Positions 2,017 through 47,576 of a stretch of DNA of 64,000 nucleotides are shown here, piece after piece. Position 1 is the stretch's first letter, and each line of letters starts with the position of its first letter. Under the pieces are notes generated by a model. It ran no database searches, was not told the DNA's origin, and saw nothing but the letters and a program-made list of their open reading frames with translations. The position numbers and the translations under genes are program-made. The stretch is from IMG/VR virus record IMGVR_UViG_3300017432_000006, positions 1-64,000 of that record, one strand, 5' to 3'. This DNA comes from a virus. Taxonomy: Duplodnaviria; Caudoviricetes.

Positions 2017-4809
2017 TCACTTCGTGTAGGTGATTTCTAAGATAGGTGCCCCTACCTCACTGGCTCCCTTGAACAATATTTCGTGAAGCGGGTCACTCGA
2101 TGAACCCGGCCCAATCATGATTCCCTTGAATGTTCCATTCTTCCAACTGGCAAAACTGTCGGTTGGGATTCTGACCCAAATACCTTGCCCCTTTCTGATC
2201 AGTGGTCTTCCAAGTCTTTCGACGTAAACAGTCAATCCGTTCATGGTGTTCTCAGGTCGGTTGACTGATCCGTGGGCTCCGATTCTTGTTCTTGTACCTG
2301 TGTTGGACACAGCAGAACCCGCTTGTAGGAACAGACGCATACTGTTGATTTCAGCACCGGCGAGGTCGTTGACGATCTGTTCGGGGAACCCGTAAAGCGA
2401 ACGCTTATTACCATTCGAGAATCTGTCTCCCTGTGCCTGTCCTTGTCCACCGAACTCGACCGACTTAATTCTGGCGTTGTCACCCTGGTACATACCTGTC
2501 CATGTTGACTGGTAGCGACGAGTTGTAGTTACCTTGATTGGCTCAGGGTTTGGCTCTTCGCTTGAAGGCGGCGGTGTAGGTGTGACAGTTCCACCATTGT
2601 TAGGATCAGTGTAGGCACCGTCAGAGGAACCACCCATCTTAATACTTGAGAGTGGGCCCTCTTCTCTAATGTCAAACATGGCAAGACGGTTGTCAAGTGC
2701 CACTGATCCGGCGGAAGCAATTGCACTACAAAGAATTCTTGCAGTGGTGTCCACTGGCGAAAATACTCTACCAATAACGTCAATCGGTACGTTTCTATCC
2801 GATGTGTTACCTGTATTTGTGTAAACTCTTTGACCGATGACTCTCGAAGTTGTCGTAGGTGATCTACCGTCAAGGGACTGTCTCAGGAATACTTCGAATG
2901 ACTTATCACCGGTTGAAGCATTCATCTGGAAGTTGGCGTAGACGGTATACTCAATACCCCCGCGAATTGGTGCGTAGAATTCGACAAGACCGCGCTCTAC
3001 CTGATAAATTCTTGGTCTTGGTTCGAATGAGCGAGCATAACGACCAACGAGTTTACCGGCCTTACGATCTAGAATTTCTTCAAGTGACTCTCCACCGACA
3101 GACAGTTGGTTGGTGATGAGGTTCTGGAAAGTACCTTCCCCAATTTCGTTAATACCGGCCAATGTTTGTCCATCTTCCGAGATAATGCCGAAGTAGTCAC
3201 TCGATGAAGTTCCTAGTCTGATAACCTCTCTCAAAGTGCCTGGTGTAGTTACATTTCCATTTTCATCCAGAATGTCCAATGTCTTACCGAAGATTCTCAG
3301 ACCGGTACCTGTCAACTCAGCGTGAGTGTCTAGTTCTGGACCTGCGAGAATTCTTGTGTCAGAAGACAATTCACCAGTCGTAATCTTTCCTGCTTCAAGA
3401 GATGAAATCTGAGCAGAGTTGATAGACGCATTTTGAATGTCGCTACCATTGATCAGTTTCGGTGATCCTGTTGCTTCGTCTGACGGAGTAGACGAATTAC
3501 CTGAGTAGTCGTACGCCACGAACTTGACGTAGTAGGTACTACCAAATGTCAAACCGCCGACGATGATTCTTTGACTTGACCCGTTGGTGCTCATACGACC
3601 GACAAAGTTGGTCGGTGTCACTGTGAACCCCTTAGACGTCGAAGCGTGTACTGCTACGTGAGAGAAGTCAGAAGGCATGTTGGCATTGCTTGTTGTCTTA
3701 CCGTCCCATGCTACTGTCATCTGACCAACGTAATTACCAGTAACCGGCGTTGACGGCTTCGGTAGTGGCTCTGTGTCTCTGCCTGTGTCTAGTTGCTCAG
3801 GGGCCGGGATGAATGCTGATCTGTTACCCGCGCGGTCGACGCTGGCAAGAGATACCTCGTACATCGTGTTCGGTGACAAGTTCTCCAAACGGGCGGTATT
3901 GGTGAATGAGACCACTTGGCTAAAAGCACTCGCTCCCGCTCGTCGGTAACTAACCACGTAGTTATTGAAATCTGTGTCCACCGCAGCAATCCAACGTAGC
4001 GTCACGTCCTTTCTCAGAACGTACGGGTTCGACAAGTCTGTCTCGATGGTGTACCAGTTGGTGACCCATTCAGGGTTTGCAGGTGGGGTCGTGTCGTTAC
4101 CGGCTTTACCGGGAGCGCCTTGGAGGACGTTGGACGTAAAAGTTTCCTGTCCGAAATTGTCTACCGTTGACAGTCTGAAATAACGGACACTGTAGTCTTG
4201 GGTTGCGTACAAGAACTGCGGTGCAGCACCTTCGTAAATCTTCTCAGACGTTGTGGTGTTGGTATTACCCTTGTAGACTCTGTAGAGCGCAACGTCCTTA
4301 TCGGTTGTCGGTGTCCATGTGAATCGCAAAGCATCAGTCACTGACAGCAGGGCGAAATTGGTCGCTGCCACCGGGAATGCATTAGTTACCGTTACTGACG
4401 CCTGGTCACTATTGGTGTTGAGCGAGTTGTCTCTTGCGGCTACGCTGAACTTGAAAGAAGGTCTTGGTGTGGTGAAGGCAGACACGTTCTGGTCATATGT
4501 GAAATCGAATGATGTGGCAGACGTGTAGTACGTTCTTACGATCCCGCCGGTTTCGACAGTTATTCTGTAGTCCTTGAAGTCTGTTAGTGGGCTACCATCT
4601 ACGTTTGTTGTAGGTGCATTCCAAGTTAGACGGAAGTTCTTCTCCACCGCCGCTCCCGTGAGACCCGTGATCTTGGCCGGTGCAACGAGGTCGTTGGTTG
4701 TCTCAAAACTGAGAATTTGACTCCACTCTGAAACCTCGTCTCCTGCGATTGATCTGAATTGAGCGAGGTACTTCTGGCCCGGGGATAGTCCTGTGATGAT
4801 CTTTCTCAT
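2017..4809 (-). CDS. Tail tip / minor tail protein with multiple fibronectin type III-like domains
   Basis: Repeated FN3 signatures (LTWNAP, YYVKFVAYDYSGN, YEVSLASVDRAGN), a central tail-tip-like region and a C-terminal PILEITYT motif. Confidence 0.8.
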   Translation of the reverse strand: MRKIITGLSPGQKYLAQFRSIAGDEVSEWSQILSFETTNDLVAPAKITGLTGAAVEKNFRLTWNAPTTNVDGSPLTDFKDYRITVETGGIVRTYYTSATSFDFTYDQNVSAFTTPRPSFKFSVAARDNSLNTNSDQASVTVTNAFPVAATNFALLSVTDALRFTWTPTTDKDVALYRVYKGNTNTTTSEKIYEGAAPQFLYATQDYSVRYFRLSTVDNFGQETFTSNVLQGAPGKAGNDTTPPANPEWVTNWYTIETDLSNPYVLRKDVTLRWIAAVDTDFNNYVVSYRRAGASAFSQVVSFTNTARLENLSPNTMYEVSLASVDRAGNRSAFIPAPEQLDTGRDTEPLPKPSTPVTGNYVGQMTVAWDGKTTSNANMPSDFSHVAVHASTSKGFTVTPTNFVGRMSTNGSSQRIIVGGLTFGSTYYVKFVAYDYSGNSSTPSDEATGSPKLINGSDIQNASINSAQISSLEAGKITTGELSSDTRILAGPELDTHAELTGTGLRIFGKTLDILDENGNVTTPGTLREVIRLGTSSSDYFGIISEDGQTLAGINEIGEGTFQNLITNQLSVGGESLEEILDRKAGKLVGRYARSFEPRPRIYQVERGLVEFYAPIRGGIEYTVYANFQMNASTGDKSFEVFLRQSLDGRSPTTTSRVIGQRVYTNTGNTSDRNVPIDVIGRVFSPVDTTARILCSAIASAGSVALDNRLAMFDIREEGPLSSIKMGGSSDGAYTDPNNGGTVTPTPPPSSEEPNPEPIKVTTTRRYQSTWTGMYQGDNARIKSVEFGGQGQAQGDRFSNGNKRSLYGFPEQIVNDLAGAEINSMRLFLQAGSAVSNTGTRTRIGAHGSVNRPENTMNGLTVYVERLGRPLIRKGQGIWVRIPTDSFASWKNGTFKGIMIGPGSSSDPLHEILFKGASEVGAPILEITYTK

Positions 4810-42237: not shown

Positions 42238-43362
42238 TTACTTAATAGGCAGTAGCCACGCTGCATTCCACGTCTGCTCGCCCAAAAGGCCATTGACCTT
42301 GAGACCGGCTAGTTTCTGGAAGTAGCGGACGATACGGTCTGTGTCAGGTCCGAATGAACCATCAACGTCTAGACCGTAACCGCGCTCTACCATCTGACGC
42401 TGCCACTTAGCGATACCAGAAGAGTTGTCACCCTTCTTGAAATACCCGCGACCCTTAGTCCATCTGGCAGAAGCCGGAACTGTGAGCGCAGGCTTTGGTG
42501 CTACAGGCTTCGGCTTGTTCGCTTCTGCCTTTGCTGCGGCTGCTGCCTTATCGGCACGCCACTTGACCCAACGACCGTAGTGCTGCCACGTCACTCTTTC
42601 GACAACACCCGTTACGGGTACTCCTACCTTCTGCTGTACGACCTTTACTGCATCTGCTGTCTTGGGACCGTAGAAGCCATCAGCCTTGACCCCGGCCCAT
42701 CCCTGAATTGCAACAACGTCAGGGCCTCCTAGTTGTGGAACAGTAACCTTTAGTTCACGCTCTCCAACGCGGTATGTCTTCTCGGGCTTTGCTACAATTC
42801 CGCCCTTGCGAAGTGTTGAAGGATGATCAAGGAATCCCTGTACTGTCGAGCGGAACTGATTCATGTTGATACCGGCTGGGTCGATCTTACGACCGCGAGG
42901 AACACAAATCTCCTTGTGCGCGCCGACTCTGCTGCTGTTGCGTCTGATGTACTTTAGCACAGCGGCGGTGCCGCGAGCATATGAATCAAGTTGTGCTGCT
43001 GTCCAGTCCTTACCGTTACCCACTGATTCGGCTTCTACACCGATGAATGAGCCATTAAGATTACTGAATCCTGCCCAACTTGAAGTACCGGCGTGGTTGG
43101 AACGACCTGCGGCAATAACATACCATGTACCGTCGCGGCCTAGACCTAGTTGTGACAACGGACCGGAAAGTCCTGCACGCCCGTTCTTGACTACGTTCAA
43201 TGATGGGTAGTTACCTGTCTTGGCACCTACCGTGTGGTGAGGGGTGATTCCCTCTACTGCGTTCATGCCGCGCGTACCGCGAGTCTTCCAGCCACTAACC
43301 TCAACTACCGGATAGCCTGTTTCTCTCAGTGCGTCAGCAAGCCATGTTGCCCAAACTGCCAT
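42238..43362 (-). CDS. Endolysin: Amidase_2 domain plus peptidoglycan-binding domains
   Basis: HHT...NHAG...IGVEAE...HKE...RKIDP amidase motif; DGFYGPKTADAV and VDGSFGPDTDRIVRYFQ PG-binding repeats. Confidence 0.93.
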   Translation of the reverse strand: MAVWATWLADALRETGYPVVEVSGWKTRGTRGMNAVEGITPHHTVGAKTGNYPSLNVVKNGRAGLSGPLSQLGLGRDGTWYVIAAGRSNHAGTSSWAGFSNLNGSFIGVEAESVGNGKDWTAAQLDSYARGTAAVLKYIRRNSSRVGAHKEICVPRGRKIDPAGINMNQFRSTVQGFLDHPSTLRKGGIVAKPEKTYRVGERELKVTVPQLGGPDVVAIQGWAGVKADGFYGPKTADAVKVVQQKVGVPVTGVVERVTWQHYGRWVKWRADKAAAAAKAEANKPKPVAPKPALTVPASARWTKGRGYFKKGDNSSGIAKWQRQMVERGYGLDVDGSFGPDTDRIVRYFQKLAGLKVNGLLGEQTWNAAWLLPIK

Positions 43363-43613
43363 TAGTCTTCCTCATCCTCCTCAGGGTGGTCGAGTAGATA
43401 CTGGTCTCTACCGGCATCCCAATTCTCGGCCTCATAATCTTCTACTGTCTTCTCGGGGTTGTAACTTACTGTGAGTTCCCCGCTCTCAAATAGTTCTTGT
43501 AGTTCTGCGTCTGTTGTTGGCTGCGCGCCGTCGAATGCTGCGTCTCGCTTGTCCTCAAAAGGAGTCTTGCGGAACTTGCTCACGACCTTACCAATGCTGT
43601 TTGCGTTGATCAT
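43362..43613 (-). CDS. Hypothetical acidic protein
   Basis: 83 aa with RBS (AAGGAG), coupled to the endolysin start. Confidence 0.65.
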   Translation of the reverse strand: MINANSIGKVVSKFRKTPFEDKRDAAFDGAQPTTDAELQELFESGELTVSYNPEKTVEDYEAENWDAGRDQYLLDHPEEDEED

Positions 43614-43646
43614 TTCACTCTCCTTAAGTTATGAGTATAACACCAA

Positions 43647-43673
43647 ACCCCCCGAACCCAAAGGGCCGGGGGG
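43647..43673 (-). terminator. Terminator-like hairpin after the RNR operon
   Basis: CCCCCC..CCC / GGG..GGGGGG stem followed by TTTGGTG on the minus strand. Confidence 0.6.
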
Positions 43674-43685
43674 TAGGTAAGAGTG

Positions 43686-43772
43686 TCAGCCCTCGCAGGC
43701 TACACACTCAGGGTTGTCTAGTTTGCACTGAGGAATAACTTCCCAATCATCATCGTCCCATGAAATATCCAT
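43686..43772 (-). CDS. 28-aa peptide resembling the NrdA C-terminal redox tail (MDISWDDDDWEVIPQCKLDNPECVACEG)
   Basis: Hand translation. In frame with nrdA behind TGA-CAA; AAGGAG RBS 9 nt upstream of the ATG. Confidence 0.8.
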   Translation of the reverse strand: MDISWDDDDWEVIPQCKLDNPECVACEG

Positions 43773-43775
43773 TTG

Positions 43776-45464
43776 TCAGTTCTCCTTTCTTCTTGCTTTA
43801 CTGGCTTGCACGCCCGCCTTGGAGCGGAAGTAATATAGTGCCTTGACATAAGGGTCAAGCATTGCCTGCTTGTGAACATCGCTGATCTTAGCAGGAGATT
43901 CCTTGGCATCGAAGAACAGGTTTAGTGACTGCCCCTGATCGATGTACTGCTGTCTGTCCGAAGCCTGCTGTACGACGTGAACTTGGTCAATCTCGTAAGC
44001 AGTCTTGAATACGTCCTTCTCATGACCAGTTAGCCAGTCAACGTCTTGCACAGAACCGTTGTTGTCGATGATGTGATCAACAATCTCTGGTGTGTAGACG
44101 TTTCTCTCCTTCATGATCTTGAGAAGGGTGGGGTTGACTCTGAAAATCTCCCCCGCCGCGCTTGACTGGTTCCAAGCGTTAGCAACGATAGGCTCAATGC
44201 CCTGCGACACCCCGCCGACGAGCAGCGCGGTTGACATTGTAGGTGCAATTGCCATTAGGTGCGTGTTGCGCCTGCCGTCAGCCCACTCAGGAGCACCGGC
44301 AAGATCGGCCATTGCAGTGCTTGCAATCTCGGCCTCTCTTCTAATGTGATTGAACGCTTCCTTGTTAAAGATGTAGGCATCCTCAGAATCAAAAGGAATC
44401 ATGTTGTCCTGTAAGTATGTGTGGTAGCCCATAACACCGAGACCTAGCGCGCGGGACTTCTCTGTGAATCGAACCGCGTTCTCTGTTCCCTTAATACCCT
44501 TTGCTGCACGGACGAATGCCTCGGCTACACAATCAAGAAACACGGTAGCGTCCTTAACGGCAGATGTGTCCTCCCAATCATCGTAGTGAGCCAAGTTCAT
44601 CGAACTCAGGACACAGGTGAATGAGTGGTCAGCGTCAGAGTGAAGTGTAATCTCTGAGCACAGGTTACTTGCCTTGACGCTGAGACCGTTCTTGGCATAT
44701 GACTCAGGGTTGAGTCTATTCACCTTGTCTACGAAGAACATGTATCCTTTACCAGTAATTGCTCTGGTCTTGAGGATAGCCTTGTAACGACGAACTGCCT
44801 CTTGGTCCCCGGCCTTCAACTTATTGATGAAGTCATCGGTGATGTTCCATCCAACGTTGAGACCATCAGGATTATTGCGAAGGTAGGTCACAATTTCGTC
44901 AAAGTCTGCGTGATCTGCTTCGATGTAACCCGCCCATGCTCCTCTACGTGTCGAACCCTGAGATGTGTCGTCCATATCCTGAACAAATCCCTTGATGACT
45001 GGCATCGGGCCTGCGGCCTTGCCGTTGTCAGAGAACTTTGAACCACGGGGACGGATATCACCAAGGTATGATGACGTTCCGAAACCGTGCTTTGTCAGAA
45101 CTGCTGACTCTAGACGGCTAGAGTAGAATCCGTAGATAGAATCTACGACATAGTTTCCTGTACAACTGACAGGAAGTCCACGGGTAGTTCCCAGGTTTGC
45201 AAGAACCGGGGTAGAAGGTGAAAGCCAACCCTTCCAGATAAGATCGAAGAAAGTGTTCTCCCAATCATTCCATCCGTAGAGTTCGGTAGCAATGTCACCG
45301 GCTGTCTTGGCGATCTTTTTGTAACGGTCCTTTAGGCTTTGTCCTGGCTCTGCGTACTTGAGCATGAACATCTGGTAACCGCCGGTTGTGTACCAACCAG
45401 GGACCTCGCCCTTGGCTTGTAATTCCTTTCGCTCATTGGCGAACTTTTCATAGATTGAAGTCAT
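43776..45464 (-). CDS. nrdA: Ribonucleotide reductase class Ia alpha subunit (no ATP cone, no C-terminal CxxC)
   Basis: LSPSTP.LAN.G..RGLPVSC, RRGAWAGY, ASNLCSEI, AIAPTMS, SQGIEP, YYFRS motifs. Confidence 0.95.
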   Translation of the reverse strand: MTSIYEKFANERKELQAKGEVPGWYTTGGYQMFMLKYAEPGQSLKDRYKKIAKTAGDIATELYGWNDWENTFFDLIWKGWLSPSTPVLANLGTTRGLPVSCTGNYVVDSIYGFYSSRLESAVLTKHGFGTSSYLGDIRPRGSKFSDNGKAAGPMPVIKGFVQDMDDTSQGSTRRGAWAGYIEADHADFDEIVTYLRNNPDGLNVGWNITDDFINKLKAGDQEAVRRYKAILKTRAITGKGYMFFVDKVNRLNPESYAKNGLSVKASNLCSEITLHSDADHSFTCVLSSMNLAHYDDWEDTSAVKDATVFLDCVAEAFVRAAKGIKGTENAVRFTEKSRALGLGVMGYHTYLQDNMIPFDSEDAYIFNKEAFNHIRREAEIASTAMADLAGAPEWADGRRNTHLMAIAPTMSTALLVGGVSQGIEPIVANAWNQSSAAGEIFRVNPTLLKIMKERNVYTPEIVDHIIDNNGSVQDVDWLTGHEKDVFKTAYEIDQVHVVQQASDRQQYIDQGQSLNLFFDAKESPAKISDVHKQAMLDPYVKALYYFRSKAGVQASKARRKEN

Positions 45465-45570
45465 GTTCGTGGTCTACCTCCGTCAACGTCTTGTATGAAA
45501 TGATGTACTCGCCCGCGCACACGAGGCAAGTTGCATTCTTGTCTGTGATCAACCAATTGCCAATACCCAT
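45448..45570 (-). CDS. 40-aa CxxC-containing mini-protein between nrdB and nrdA
   Basis: Hand translation MGIGNWLITDKNATCLVCAGEYIISYKTLTEVDHEHDFNL; TGATG overlap with the nrdB stop. Confidence 0.5.
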   Translation of the reverse strand: MGIGNWLITDKNATCLVCAGEYIISYKTLTEVDHEHDFNL

Positions 45571-46547
45571 CAGAAATCAAACCCATCTTCATCGAAGTTT
45601 CTGTTGTACTCGTTCTGAGTACCGTTGAAGAAGTCACCGAACTGCTGTGCGTTGATTCCTCGGTAGAACCACTCAGCAATAGGGTTATCGCCAATTTCGT
45701 AGCGAGGCTTGAAATCAAGGTACTCGTAGCACAGGTTAAGACGTGACTTGACGAAAGTAGTCAACTGATCGAAGTCGATACCCTCGATTTCACCCTTCTC
45801 GAAGATCATCTCAATGATGCGGGTTTCGTGCTCTAGGATGTGGTCTGCTGCCTCATCGATTCTTGTCTTAAGGGCATCTAGTCTTCCCTGGCCCGCGCCT
45901 TCCTCGTCTCTCAACTGACGGAAAAGCCATGCTCCTAGTTCGTGGTGAAGGGACTCGTCTCTAACACTAAAGTTGATTCCTCTTACCACGGTGTTGAGCA
46001 GGTTCTTACCGCCGGACTGGAAGTGCTTGAGGAATGCGAATGACGAATACAGAACCGCGCCCTCTAGCATGGAGAACACAGCAATGGCAAAGAGAAGGTC
46101 GTCGTCTTCTGCTGCGTCCTCCACGAACTGCATACGTGCTGCCAGAGTCTCATCATTCTTGTAAGAATTAAAGAACTCGTCATTGGCTAGCAGCATCGCC
46201 TCATTGATCTTGTTGTAGAAAGGTGCGTGTACTGCCAGTTCGATAGCATTGATCAAAGCACCAGCCTGCTGAATCTCAGGACGAGGGAATGCCTTGACCA
46301 CTCGGTCTCCCCAATAACTTGATCCTACTTCTAGTTCGTACAACACGAAAAGTTTAAGTACGACTACAACCGCCTCATACTCTGCGGGAGTCATGTTTGC
46401 TCTGAGGTCTTGAATGTCTTTCTCTACGTTAATCTCTTCCGGTGTCCAGAAGATGCTTCTCTGCTGCTCGATCTTCTCAAGCACGAACGGGTAATCGAAT
46501 GTATACGTTGACTTGGGGGTTCTGATCTGTGGTAGTGTGTCCGTCAT
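45570..46547 (-). CDS. nrdB: Ribonucleotide reductase class Ia beta subunit
   Basis: FWTPEEI...ELAVHAPFY...LEGAVLYSSF...VRDESLH di-iron ligand motifs. Confidence 0.95.
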   Translation of the reverse strand: MTDTLPQIRTPKSTYTFDYPFVLEKIEQQRSIFWTPEEINVEKDIQDLRANMTPAEYEAVVVVLKLFVLYELEVGSSYWGDRVVKAFPRPEIQQAGALINAIELAVHAPFYNKINEAMLLANDEFFNSYKNDETLAARMQFVEDAAEDDDLLFAIAVFSMLEGAVLYSSFAFLKHFQSGGKNLLNTVVRGINFSVRDESLHHELGAWLFRQLRDEEGAGQGRLDALKTRIDEAADHILEHETRIIEMIFEKGEIEGIDFDQLTTFVKSRLNLCYEYLDFKPRYEIGDNPIAEWFYRGINAQQFGDFFNGTQNEYNRNFDEDGFDF

Positions 46548-46622: not shown

Positions 46623-47576
46623 TCAAATCCGGTCGAAAAGTTGTTGGAACTGCTTGCGAGTCAGTTCCTGCCAATTGTATTTGCGTTGTGCCGCAACACT
46701 TTTCGCAAATGCCAGGCTTGCGTATCTTTTATAATGCACCCGAGAAAGTTCGAACTTTTTTACCAGATCATCAAAATCTGGTTCGTACATCTTGCCCGGG
46801 TGGGTATCTTCCCACGGACTGTCACGAAGAGTAGTTTTCACTAACAGATCGTCAATCAGGTGGTCCTCGTAGGGTGCCCAGCCAGACGTACAAATCTGTG
46901 GCATTCCTGTGAATACGCCTTGAAGACCCGGAATACCGAAACCCTCGCCCCATGTCGAGTTGACGAAGACGTGGTGCTTGCGGTACATGTAGGCTAGTTC
47001 ATTCTCGTTAACCATCTGCTTGATCACCTTGACGTTGGACGGTAGGGTGTTAGGCAGTAGTGGACGGTGAATCGACTTGAAGGTCAGGCTTACTTCGTTA
47101 CTGTCCTTGAAGACTTGGTTGAAGGCTTCTAGAGCAATACCCGCGCCCTTCCTGACAGCCGCGCCGTCCATATGAAGGTAGCGTAGCACATCTTGTGGTC
47201 GACGCTTCTCGGCGTACCAGATATTGCCGTCCACGCCATGCTCGTAAACATAAATTGGCTTGGTGGTCCACGGTCTCATCCACTCTGCCAGGCGGGGCGA
47301 GGTTACCCATAATTCGTCCACCTGCTTGAAACAGTCGATCCAGTTATCTCTAGGTAGTGTGGACTCCCATGCCATATAACCGACCTTGTAGGATTTTTCT
47401 GACGACCACTCCCAACTATCGGGGTGACCGAAGGCCAGTTCTACCGGGGCGCCAGGGTCTCTGAAAGGAACCTTGTATCCATTAGCCTGTAATGATGTGA
47501 CGATGTTGAACCCGGCCTCACCGAATCCTGTACCGCGAATTGCCATGTCTGGTGGCATTGAGAAGGAAATTATCAT
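46623..47576 (-). CDS. Glycosyltransferase (GT-B, GT4-like)
   Basis: KVGYMAWEST.P..W...VDELWVTS...EHGVD...RKGAGIALEAF...GEGFGIPGLQ. Confidence 0.88.
   Translation of the reverse strand: MIISFSMPPDMAIRGTGFGEAGFNIVTSLQANGYKVPFRDPGAPVELAFGHPDSWEWSSEKSYKVGYMAWESTLPRDNWIDCFKQVDELWVTSPRLAEWMRPWTTKPIYVYEHGVDGNIWYAEKRRPQDVLRYLHMDGAAVRKGAGIALEAFNQVFKDSNEVSLTFKSIHRPLLPNTLPSNVKVIKQMVNENELAYMYRKHHVFVNSTWGEGFGIPGLQGVFTGMPQICTSGWAPYEDHLIDDLLVKTTLRDSPWEDTHPGKMYEPDFDDLVKKFELSRVHYKRYASLAFAKSVAAQRKYNWQELTRKQFQQLFDRI

Follow-up and report, generated by a model that had tools for sequence, protein, structure and literature searches.

A class Id-type ribonucleotide reductase whose redox tail appears to be encoded as a separate micro-protein in phages and actinobacteria

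The DNA analysed here (the window) is a 64,000-nucleotide stretch of a tailed-phage sequence (Caudoviricetes; positions 1 to 64,000 of IMG/VR virus record IMGVR_UViG_3300017432_000006), and on its minus strand lies an operon for a class I ribonucleotide reductase (RNR) in which nrdB and nrdA are followed by a very short open reading frame (ORF) that probably encodes the redox tail lacking from the NrdA chain (Table 1). The translated NrdA C-terminus consists of Q-A-S-K and seven further, mostly basic residues, with no C-terminal cysteine. The nrdA stop codon is a TGA (43776-43778), followed by CAA and then, in the same frame, by the ATG of the small ORF (43770-43772), whose Shine-Dalgarno (SD) sequence is placed within the end of nrdA in a way that suggests translational coupling. 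The predicted peptide has an acidic, Trp-containing N-terminal part (W5) followed by C16-x6-C23-x2-C26-E-G-stop. Downstream of it is a hairpin that only 1 of 200 shuffled sequences matched in folding; it is terminator-like and would end the nrdB-nrdA-peptide transcription unit. An initial annotation of this DNA had pointed to a cysteine-less nrdA end, a TGA-CAA-ATG junction, a 28-codon ORF with a ribosome-binding site at 9 nt and a terminator, and all of these features are present. Because TGA is the commonest ordinary stop in the contig, ending 25 of its 38 long ORFs, recoding of TGA was rejected and the standard code applies. The peptide gene occurs once in this contig, a virus record of 72.9 kb with an estimated completeness of 55%.

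Textbooks place the C-terminal cysteine pair of class I RNRs on the alpha chain itself, as exemplified by C754/C759 of the Escherichia coli enzyme and the CX2C motif of eukaryotic R1, and in yeast R1 the tail acts across subunits. NrdA of the window contains the RNR barrel (PF02867, E 1e-79) and the all-alpha N domain (PF00317, E 2e-8), and its best solved relatives among Protein Data Bank (PDB) sequences are the class Id alphas 6dqw (E 1e-116) and 6dqx (E 1e-110), while those of NrdB are the class Id betas 6sf4/5olk and 6cwo. NrdB has no ATP-cone, and its C-terminal tail retains a conserved Tyr and a final F-x-F. The NrdAi clade is distinguished by a short alpha (about 564 residues), the absence of an ATP-cone and a beta-alpha gene order (PMC9669993); the window enzyme, with an alpha of 562 residues, no ATP-cone and nrdB upstream, shares these properties. 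By sequence, it is a class Id-type (NrdAi/NrdBi) aerobic RNR; class Id proper is defined by a Mn2(IV,III) cofactor in NrdB and the lack of a stable tyrosyl radical, and its similarity to class Id betas makes the window NrdB a candidate for such a cofactor. One further NrdAi property, a C-x-x-C pair on alpha itself, is missing from the window NrdA and from all 44 distinct members of its clade.

The catalytic residues are nevertheless all in place. C101, N267, C269, E271, C284 and the dyad Y544-Y545 are present in NrdA, and the catalytic residues and Tyr dyad are invariant or nearly so among its relatives (alignments A1 and A3), across which the active-site residues C101, C269 and C284 are the only conserved cysteines. 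NrdA looks like an active enzyme and, since it carries the full catalytic set, its C101-C284 disulfide would need reduction after each turnover. A reductant is thus required, which supports the provision of a tail in trans.

To place this arrangement among related enzymes, 196 loci containing an NrdAi 3' end were assembled; their sources were metagenomes, phage records, viral contigs and a set of prokaryotic genomes with one representative per species. Alpha ends in its own C-x-x-C in 145 of them and is tail-less in 48. Every one of the 48 tail-less nrdA genes has a small ORF downstream, within about 110 nt in 47 cases, and none of the 145 loci with their own C-x-x-C tail belongs to the tail-less group. 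The pairing of tail-less nrdA with a small ORF is far beyond chance, and the case that would have spoken against the initial annotation, in which all relatives are fused, was not found. The details of the junction vary widely. Across 47 loci, the small ORF lies in frame 0, +1 or +2 relative to nrdA in 12, 16 and 19 cases, respectively, and the nrdA stop is TGA in 31, TAA in 10 and TAG in 6. Gaps between the two genes range from -8 to +107 nt. Nearly all of the small ORFs start with ATG (GTG in L078 and L131), and all phage relatives and most bacterial ones have an equivalent SD sequence ahead of it; in 8 of 9 phage-type loci this sequence lies inside nrdA, with a gap of -8 to +4 nt.

Individual loci illustrate this diversity. 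In L120, the locus nearest to the window (88% identity in NrdA), the junction reads TGA-TTTT-ATG and the small ORF is in the +1 frame; L121 ends nrdA with TAA and likewise has its small ORF in +1, and in L122 the small-ORF ATG lies 8 nt inside nrdA. In Rhodococcus phage NiceHouse (L001:4163-4255), a TAA and a single codon precede an in-frame ATG, whereas in Rhodococcus phage Trina (L002, NC_042040) nrdA closes with two stops and the small ORF, in another frame, comes after a 22-nt spacer that contains a separate AAGGAG. The small-ORF ATG of Peregrin (L118:3066-3152) overlaps the nrdA TAA, and the peptide gene of Rhodococcus phage Weasels2 (L119:3082-3171, NC_041887) directly follows nrdA. These genes are poorly served by current records: those of NiceHouse and Peregrin are annotated as hypothetical proteins and that of Weasels2 is unannotated. 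For Trina, the RefSeq coding sequence gp060 (locus 4157-4246) is mis-framed and its 29-residue product unrelated, the conserved peptide ORF being 4153-4239 behind AAGGAG. Finally, in one metagenome contig (L159, Ga0172380_10006965), an HNH endonuclease ORF (~3140-3900) lies between nrdA and a small ORF (3902-3982) that has an SD sequence; the HNH ORF could be a relic of tail detachment or a later invasion of the junction.

The end of the peptide is homologous, by sequence comparison, to the tails of fused NrdA subunits. In close fused NrdAi proteins, the tail is very short and has two cysteines (Q-A-S-K-G-E-C-x-A-C-E-G at the terminus); these proteins share with the peptide a C-x-[AST]-C-E-G-stop end. 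A tblastn search with the window peptide matched its last 15 residues at 67% identity to the NrdA ends of Bordetella phage CN1 and Pseudomonas phage PC1, whose fused tails run V-C-S-L-D-D-G-E-C-x-A-C-E-G-stop about 37 residues past the last conserved helix. Judged by this match, the peptide is the counterpart of an entire class I tail of the long, three-cysteine type and not a fragment of the short type. The tail motif with a third upstream cysteine, already recognized in the initial annotation, is accordingly seen in fused form in these two phages, and the idea that the third cysteine is a novelty of split forms was dropped for that reason.

Within the peptide, W5, C16, C23, C26 and G28 are invariant in 22 diverse sequences (alignment A2), which follow the pattern [acidic/aromatic]-W-(acidic)-...-C-x(5-7)-C-x2-C-E-G; across the clade, lengths range from 28 to 50 residues. 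For the 26 core codons, compared across 31 distinct DNA sequences, the peptide's own frame gives a dN/dS of 0.25 and the shifted frames give ratios of 1.0 and 1.7; synonymous changes are common at the Cys, Glu and Gly codons, a pattern of purifying selection on the peptide frame. In five bacterial genomes, the gene is single-copy and always adjoins nrdA. Database searches returned 69 clusters of such peptides, those with source names being called hypothetical or uncharacterised and none having a Pfam domain. No Pfam or NCBIfam model matched any copy (NCBIfam at E up to 10), a peptide profile gave only a chance match among PDB sequences, and no whole-peptide fusion was found among the longer proteins of a 5.8-billion-protein set, the last being weak negative evidence. 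Thioredoxin (Trx), glutaredoxin (Grx) and NrdH proteins have a thioredoxin fold of ~75-110 residues with an internal C-x-x-C; the peptide is not a redoxin of this kind, being too short, without a Pfam match and with its C-x-x-C at the terminus.

Table 1. Features of the nrdB-nrdA-peptide operon in the window, and riboswitches upstream of its bacterial counterparts
Feature	Position	Strand	Description	Evidence
nrdB	45570..46547	-	First operon gene, 325 aa, radical-generating small subunit	Pfam PF00268, E 8e-43
nrdA	43776..45464	-	562 aa, tail-less, class Id-type (NrdAi) catalytic subunit	Translation, Pfam, PDB matches
Shine-Dalgarno AAGGAG of small ORF	43782..43787	-	Inside last nrdA codons, 9 nt 5' of ATG	
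Detached tail gene (putative redox tail)	43686..43772	-	28 codons, C-x-x-C-E-G-stop end	Sequence and alignment A2
Terminator-like hairpin	43638..43674	-	G+C-rich, U-rich tail	Minimum free energy -27.5 kcal/mol, z -3.4
Cobalamin riboswitch	L080:1146-1363			RF00174 (77-95 bits across the five)
Cobalamin riboswitch	L082:1073-1317			RF00174
Cobalamin riboswitch	L088:1121-1337			RF00174
Cobalamin riboswitch	L105:1106-1309			RF00174
Cobalamin riboswitch	L107:1114-1348			RF00174

A tree of 165 NrdA sequences, 44 of them distinct tail-less forms, was rerooted with distant NrdAi. The tail-less NrdAs form one clade (Shimodaira-Hasegawa-like support 99), for which a single state change suffices, and its sister group (L124, L125) is fused. 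Given a single clade with a fused sister, the tail was detached once and then retained as the clade diverged down to 57% NrdA identity. Rooted in this way, the clade splits into Trina-like and window-like phages on one side and Weasels2-like phages, L159 and a group of soil actinobacteria on the other, the latter comprising Lentzea, many Nocardioides, Phycicoccus, Segeticoccus, and Marmoricola and Nanopelagicales metagenome-assembled genomes (MAGs). Phage lineages branch basally within the clade, which is compatible with a phage origin of the split but no proof of one.

The initial annotation had treated the split as a peculiarity of phages, which proves too narrow, since Nocardioides, Lentzea, Phycicoccus and other bacteria carry an operon of the same three genes on their chromosomes. 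A cobalamin riboswitch lies 5' of nrdB in five of the six bacterial loci tested (Table 1), and L088 has a second, divergent one. Each of five bacterial genomes encodes the split enzyme together with a long NrdJ-like RNR; four have no other RNR, and Lentzea has a third. Streptomyces is known for a class I RNR that serves as a B12-repressed back-up, and by analogy the bacterial split enzyme looks like such a back-up, so that in the absence of B12 these cells would depend on it. When the peptide profile was run on genomes sampled around one Nocardioides (400 of the class and 200 of the family), only the centre genome matched; either the trait is patchy or this quick search is insensitive to so short a query.

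Our literature search turned up no paper on a class I RNR with its tail as a separate polypeptide. A detached class I tail peptide thus appears to be undescribed, although RNR redox tails and split RNRs are each known in kind. Fused class I tails, such as those of Vibrio phage Ceto, CN1 and PC1, have the same C-x-x-C-E-G-stop end as the peptide, and the CN1/PC1 type also has the upstream third Cys at similar spacing; their chemistry, namely reduction of the active-site disulfide and re-reduction by a thioredoxin-type system, is presumed to be the same. The peptide differs from them in being a separate product of 28-50 residues with its own SD sequence and start codon, and in its added invariant Trp and acidic N-terminal part. 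The class Id RNRs of Flavobacterium johnsoniae, Actinobacillus ureae and Leeuwenhoekiella blandensis have the same short alpha without an ATP-cone and the same beta-alpha order, but the fused NrdAi relatives that we collected retain the tail on alpha, while that of the window is split.

Among published systems, the split class II RNR of Pseudomonas aeruginosa, NrdJa/NrdJb, comes closest: a catalytic chain without the redox cysteine pair and a second, separately encoded chain that supplies the exchange are both required; NrdJb "mediates efficient reductive dithiol exchange" (PMC4520616) and is a folded cysteine-rich domain of the Zn-finger/IscU-like kind (PMC5704485; PMC9669993). In contrast to NrdJb, with its four-Cys Zn finger and B12-dependent NrdJ partner, the peptide has 28-50 residues, three Cys, no domain match and a class I partner. 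In Aeromonas phage Aeh1, nrdA is split by the mobE homing endonuclease (PMC3045599), and there too a phage class I nrdA is made as two polypeptides that reassemble. The Aeh1 split, however, falls in the catalytic body and yields two large fragments, whereas here only the flexible tail is detached and an endonuclease is absent from 47 of 48 loci. By analogy with Aeh1, the position of the HNH ORF in L159 hints at an origin through an endonuclease.

The peptide gene is a separate, conserved and selected gene, homologous to NrdA tails and found only with tail-less, catalytically intact NrdA. We consider it probable, at roughly 80%, that the RNR encoded in the window is of class Id type and has its redox tail supplied in trans by a separate micro-protein; of the two possibilities raised in the initial annotation, a tail supplied as a free peptide is the one strongly supported by comparison, given its conservation, its separate initiation in three frames and the purifying selection upon it. 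In the proposed mechanism, the 28-residue product would be translated from its own SD sequence and ATG, probably coupled to nrdA termination, and would bind NrdA non-covalently, the likely anchor being the invariant Trp and acidic N-terminal part facing the short basic stub found behind Q-A-S-K in tail-less NrdAs. Its C-x-x-C would then enter the active site and reduce the C101-C284 disulfide after each turnover, and the oxidised peptide would be re-reduced by a thioredoxin-type system of the host. As a member of the ancestral long-tail motif, the upstream third Cys may have a part in relaying or resolving the disulfide.

Several points weigh against this interpretation. We infer from sequence, rather than observe, the translation of the peptide, its docking on NrdA, its thiol-disulfide chemistry and the identity of its reductant. 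The 72.9-kb phage fragment yielded neither a thioredoxin nor a glutaredoxin gene, and the host is therefore presumed to provide the terminal reductant. Structure prediction was equally reserved: an AlphaFold2 model of the window read-through fusion, with the stop modelled as Gly, gave a predicted local distance difference test (pLDDT) score of 88.7 for the core but below 50 for the peptide, and the corresponding fusion from a Nocardioides (L110), which has a longer natural linker, gave peptide values of 52-66 with short helices. Both models have confident cores (predicted template-modelling score 0.89), and no docking site could be defined in either. Moreover, because all tail-less forms go back to a single detachment, the clade-wide correlations count as one evolutionary observation, although the deep retention of the arrangement argues for function.

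Other explanations of the small ORF were weighed against the same loci, beginning with those that concern the stop codon itself. The window derives from a single-contig metagenomic virus record, and the TGA might accordingly stem from faulty sequencing or assembly, or be a nonsense mutation private to this copy of a fused gene; but a stop followed by a restart is found in 44 distinct tail-less loci from isolates, MAGs, cultured phages and metagenomes, with differing spacers and stops, and this conservation refutes the idea, whose probability we regard as practically nil. Programmed UGA read-through, or a suppressor, could instead join nrdA to the small ORF and make the free peptide irrelevant, and the initial annotation had offered such a product as a regulated minority form of the subunit. 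The window ORFs are indeed in frame with only TGA-CAA between them, eleven further loci are in frame as well, and UGA followed by C is a comparatively leaky stop context. Yet the distribution over the three frames is that expected if frame is irrelevant, L120 and L121 are in +1, the small ORFs of L122 and L118 overlap nrdA, and Trina interposes two stops and its 22-nt spacer. Elsewhere the stops are TAA or TAG, a whole HNH gene intervenes in L159, and the small ORFs retain their own start codons and SD-like sequences. Only independent initiation fits all loci with this spread of frames, stops, overlaps and spacers; as a conserved mechanism, read-through is largely refuted by these comparisons, the minority product is not borne out, and we hold the explanation to be extremely improbable.

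Alternatively, the small protein may have nothing to do with RNR recycling and be a precursor of a lanthipeptide or another ribosomally synthesised and post-translationally modified peptide (RiPP), or a metal-binding hitch-hiker. Its acidic, leader-like N-terminal part with an aromatic-x-[IL]-D-like motif and its Cys-rich C-terminal part recall such precursors, UniRef names the copy from Lentzea pudingi (P0192 / L075) an 'FxLD family lantipeptide', and three invariant Cys could bind metal. No NCBIfam or Pfam model matches any copy, that of Lentzea included, however, and the cores are mostly without the Ser/Thr required for lanthionine. The few flanks inspected showed no sign of modification enzymes (a lysin and a glycosyltransferase in the window; Cys-rich and cobalamin-related, CbiB-like ORFs, judged by eye, in Nocardioides). 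The gene, moreover, is found only behind tail-less nrdA, is single-copy and has an end identical to fused NrdA tails. The Lentzea copy was probably misnamed on account of its cysteines and its acidic aromatic-x-I-D motif, and an unrelated function seems very unlikely. A role within the enzyme but chiefly in regulation is also conceivable, if the N-terminal part mimics the NrdB tail and competes for the beta-tail cleft, with redox-responsive cysteines gating the holoenzyme. Beta-tail peptides are competitive inhibitors of RNRs, the NrdB tails and the peptide N-terminal part are both acidic with spaced aromatics, and NrdB tails differ systematically between the split and fused clades. The resemblance of the N-terminal part appears compositional, though, the C-terminal motif of the peptide is the tail motif itself, and a purely regulatory peptide would leave the tail-less NrdA without a means of re-reduction. 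Such a role we judge unlikely.

The 3' end of nrdB (45570-45620 in the window) was compared with that of related loci for tail differences. NrdB ends in ...E-F-x-F in the split clade and in ...W-D-E-x-x-F-x-W in the fused clade, with W-D-E kept further upstream in split-clade phages, and these differences may reflect co-adaptation of an alpha surface to which beta tail and peptide both bind. In NrdA, the tail-less clade has F, N, N, S and V at residues 144, 147, 151, 281 and 416, where its nearest fused relatives have I, G, S, T and C. Residues 144-151, which belong to one loop, could mark a docking surface. Position 416 is C in near fused relatives, V in all tail-less forms, and C, M or L in the wider set. 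We rejected the idea that a cysteine had 'moved' from position 416 to the peptide, because 416 varies in the wider family and the third Cys already exists in CN1/PC1-type fused tails.

A separate shuttle peptide would bear on enzymes beyond this clade. In a survey of 2022 class I sequences, 1737 contain a C-x-x-C and 285 lack it, unexplained (PMC9531940), and a peptide in trans would, if confirmed, account for part of such 'tail-less' sequences. Annotations would also be corrected, as the gene is at present unannotated, mis-framed or 'hypothetical' in phage and bacterial records. A detached tail would further allow clean experiments on that step of RNR turnover which is least understood, since tail and body could be titrated, mutated and labelled independently, and it would mean that an essential redox relay is carried by a micro-protein common to phages and their actinobacterial hosts. 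More speculatively, the peptide may be a stoichiometric third subunit of class I RNR, anchored by its Trp and acidic residues and possibly alternating with the NrdB tail so as to gate re-reduction against radical delivery; detachment would then be recurrent in class I, seeded by homing-endonuclease insertion as in L159 and spread between phages and hosts. This extension is tentative, and we think it rather doubtful as a whole.

The gene order around the operon is glycosyltransferase, nrdB, nrdA, small ORF, an 83-residue ORF and an amidase/peptidoglycan-binding lysin, the same as in Rhodococcus phages Trina and NiceHouse. In the window, the glycosyltransferase gene lies 5' of the RNR operon at 46623-47576, and the 3' region at 42238-43613 holds the 83-residue ORF and a lysin A-like gene with amidase and peptidoglycan-binding parts. 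The G+C content of the window is 49%; this value and the Trinavirus-like gene order point to an actinobacteriophage with a genome of ~130 kb, ~55% of which is contained in the record.

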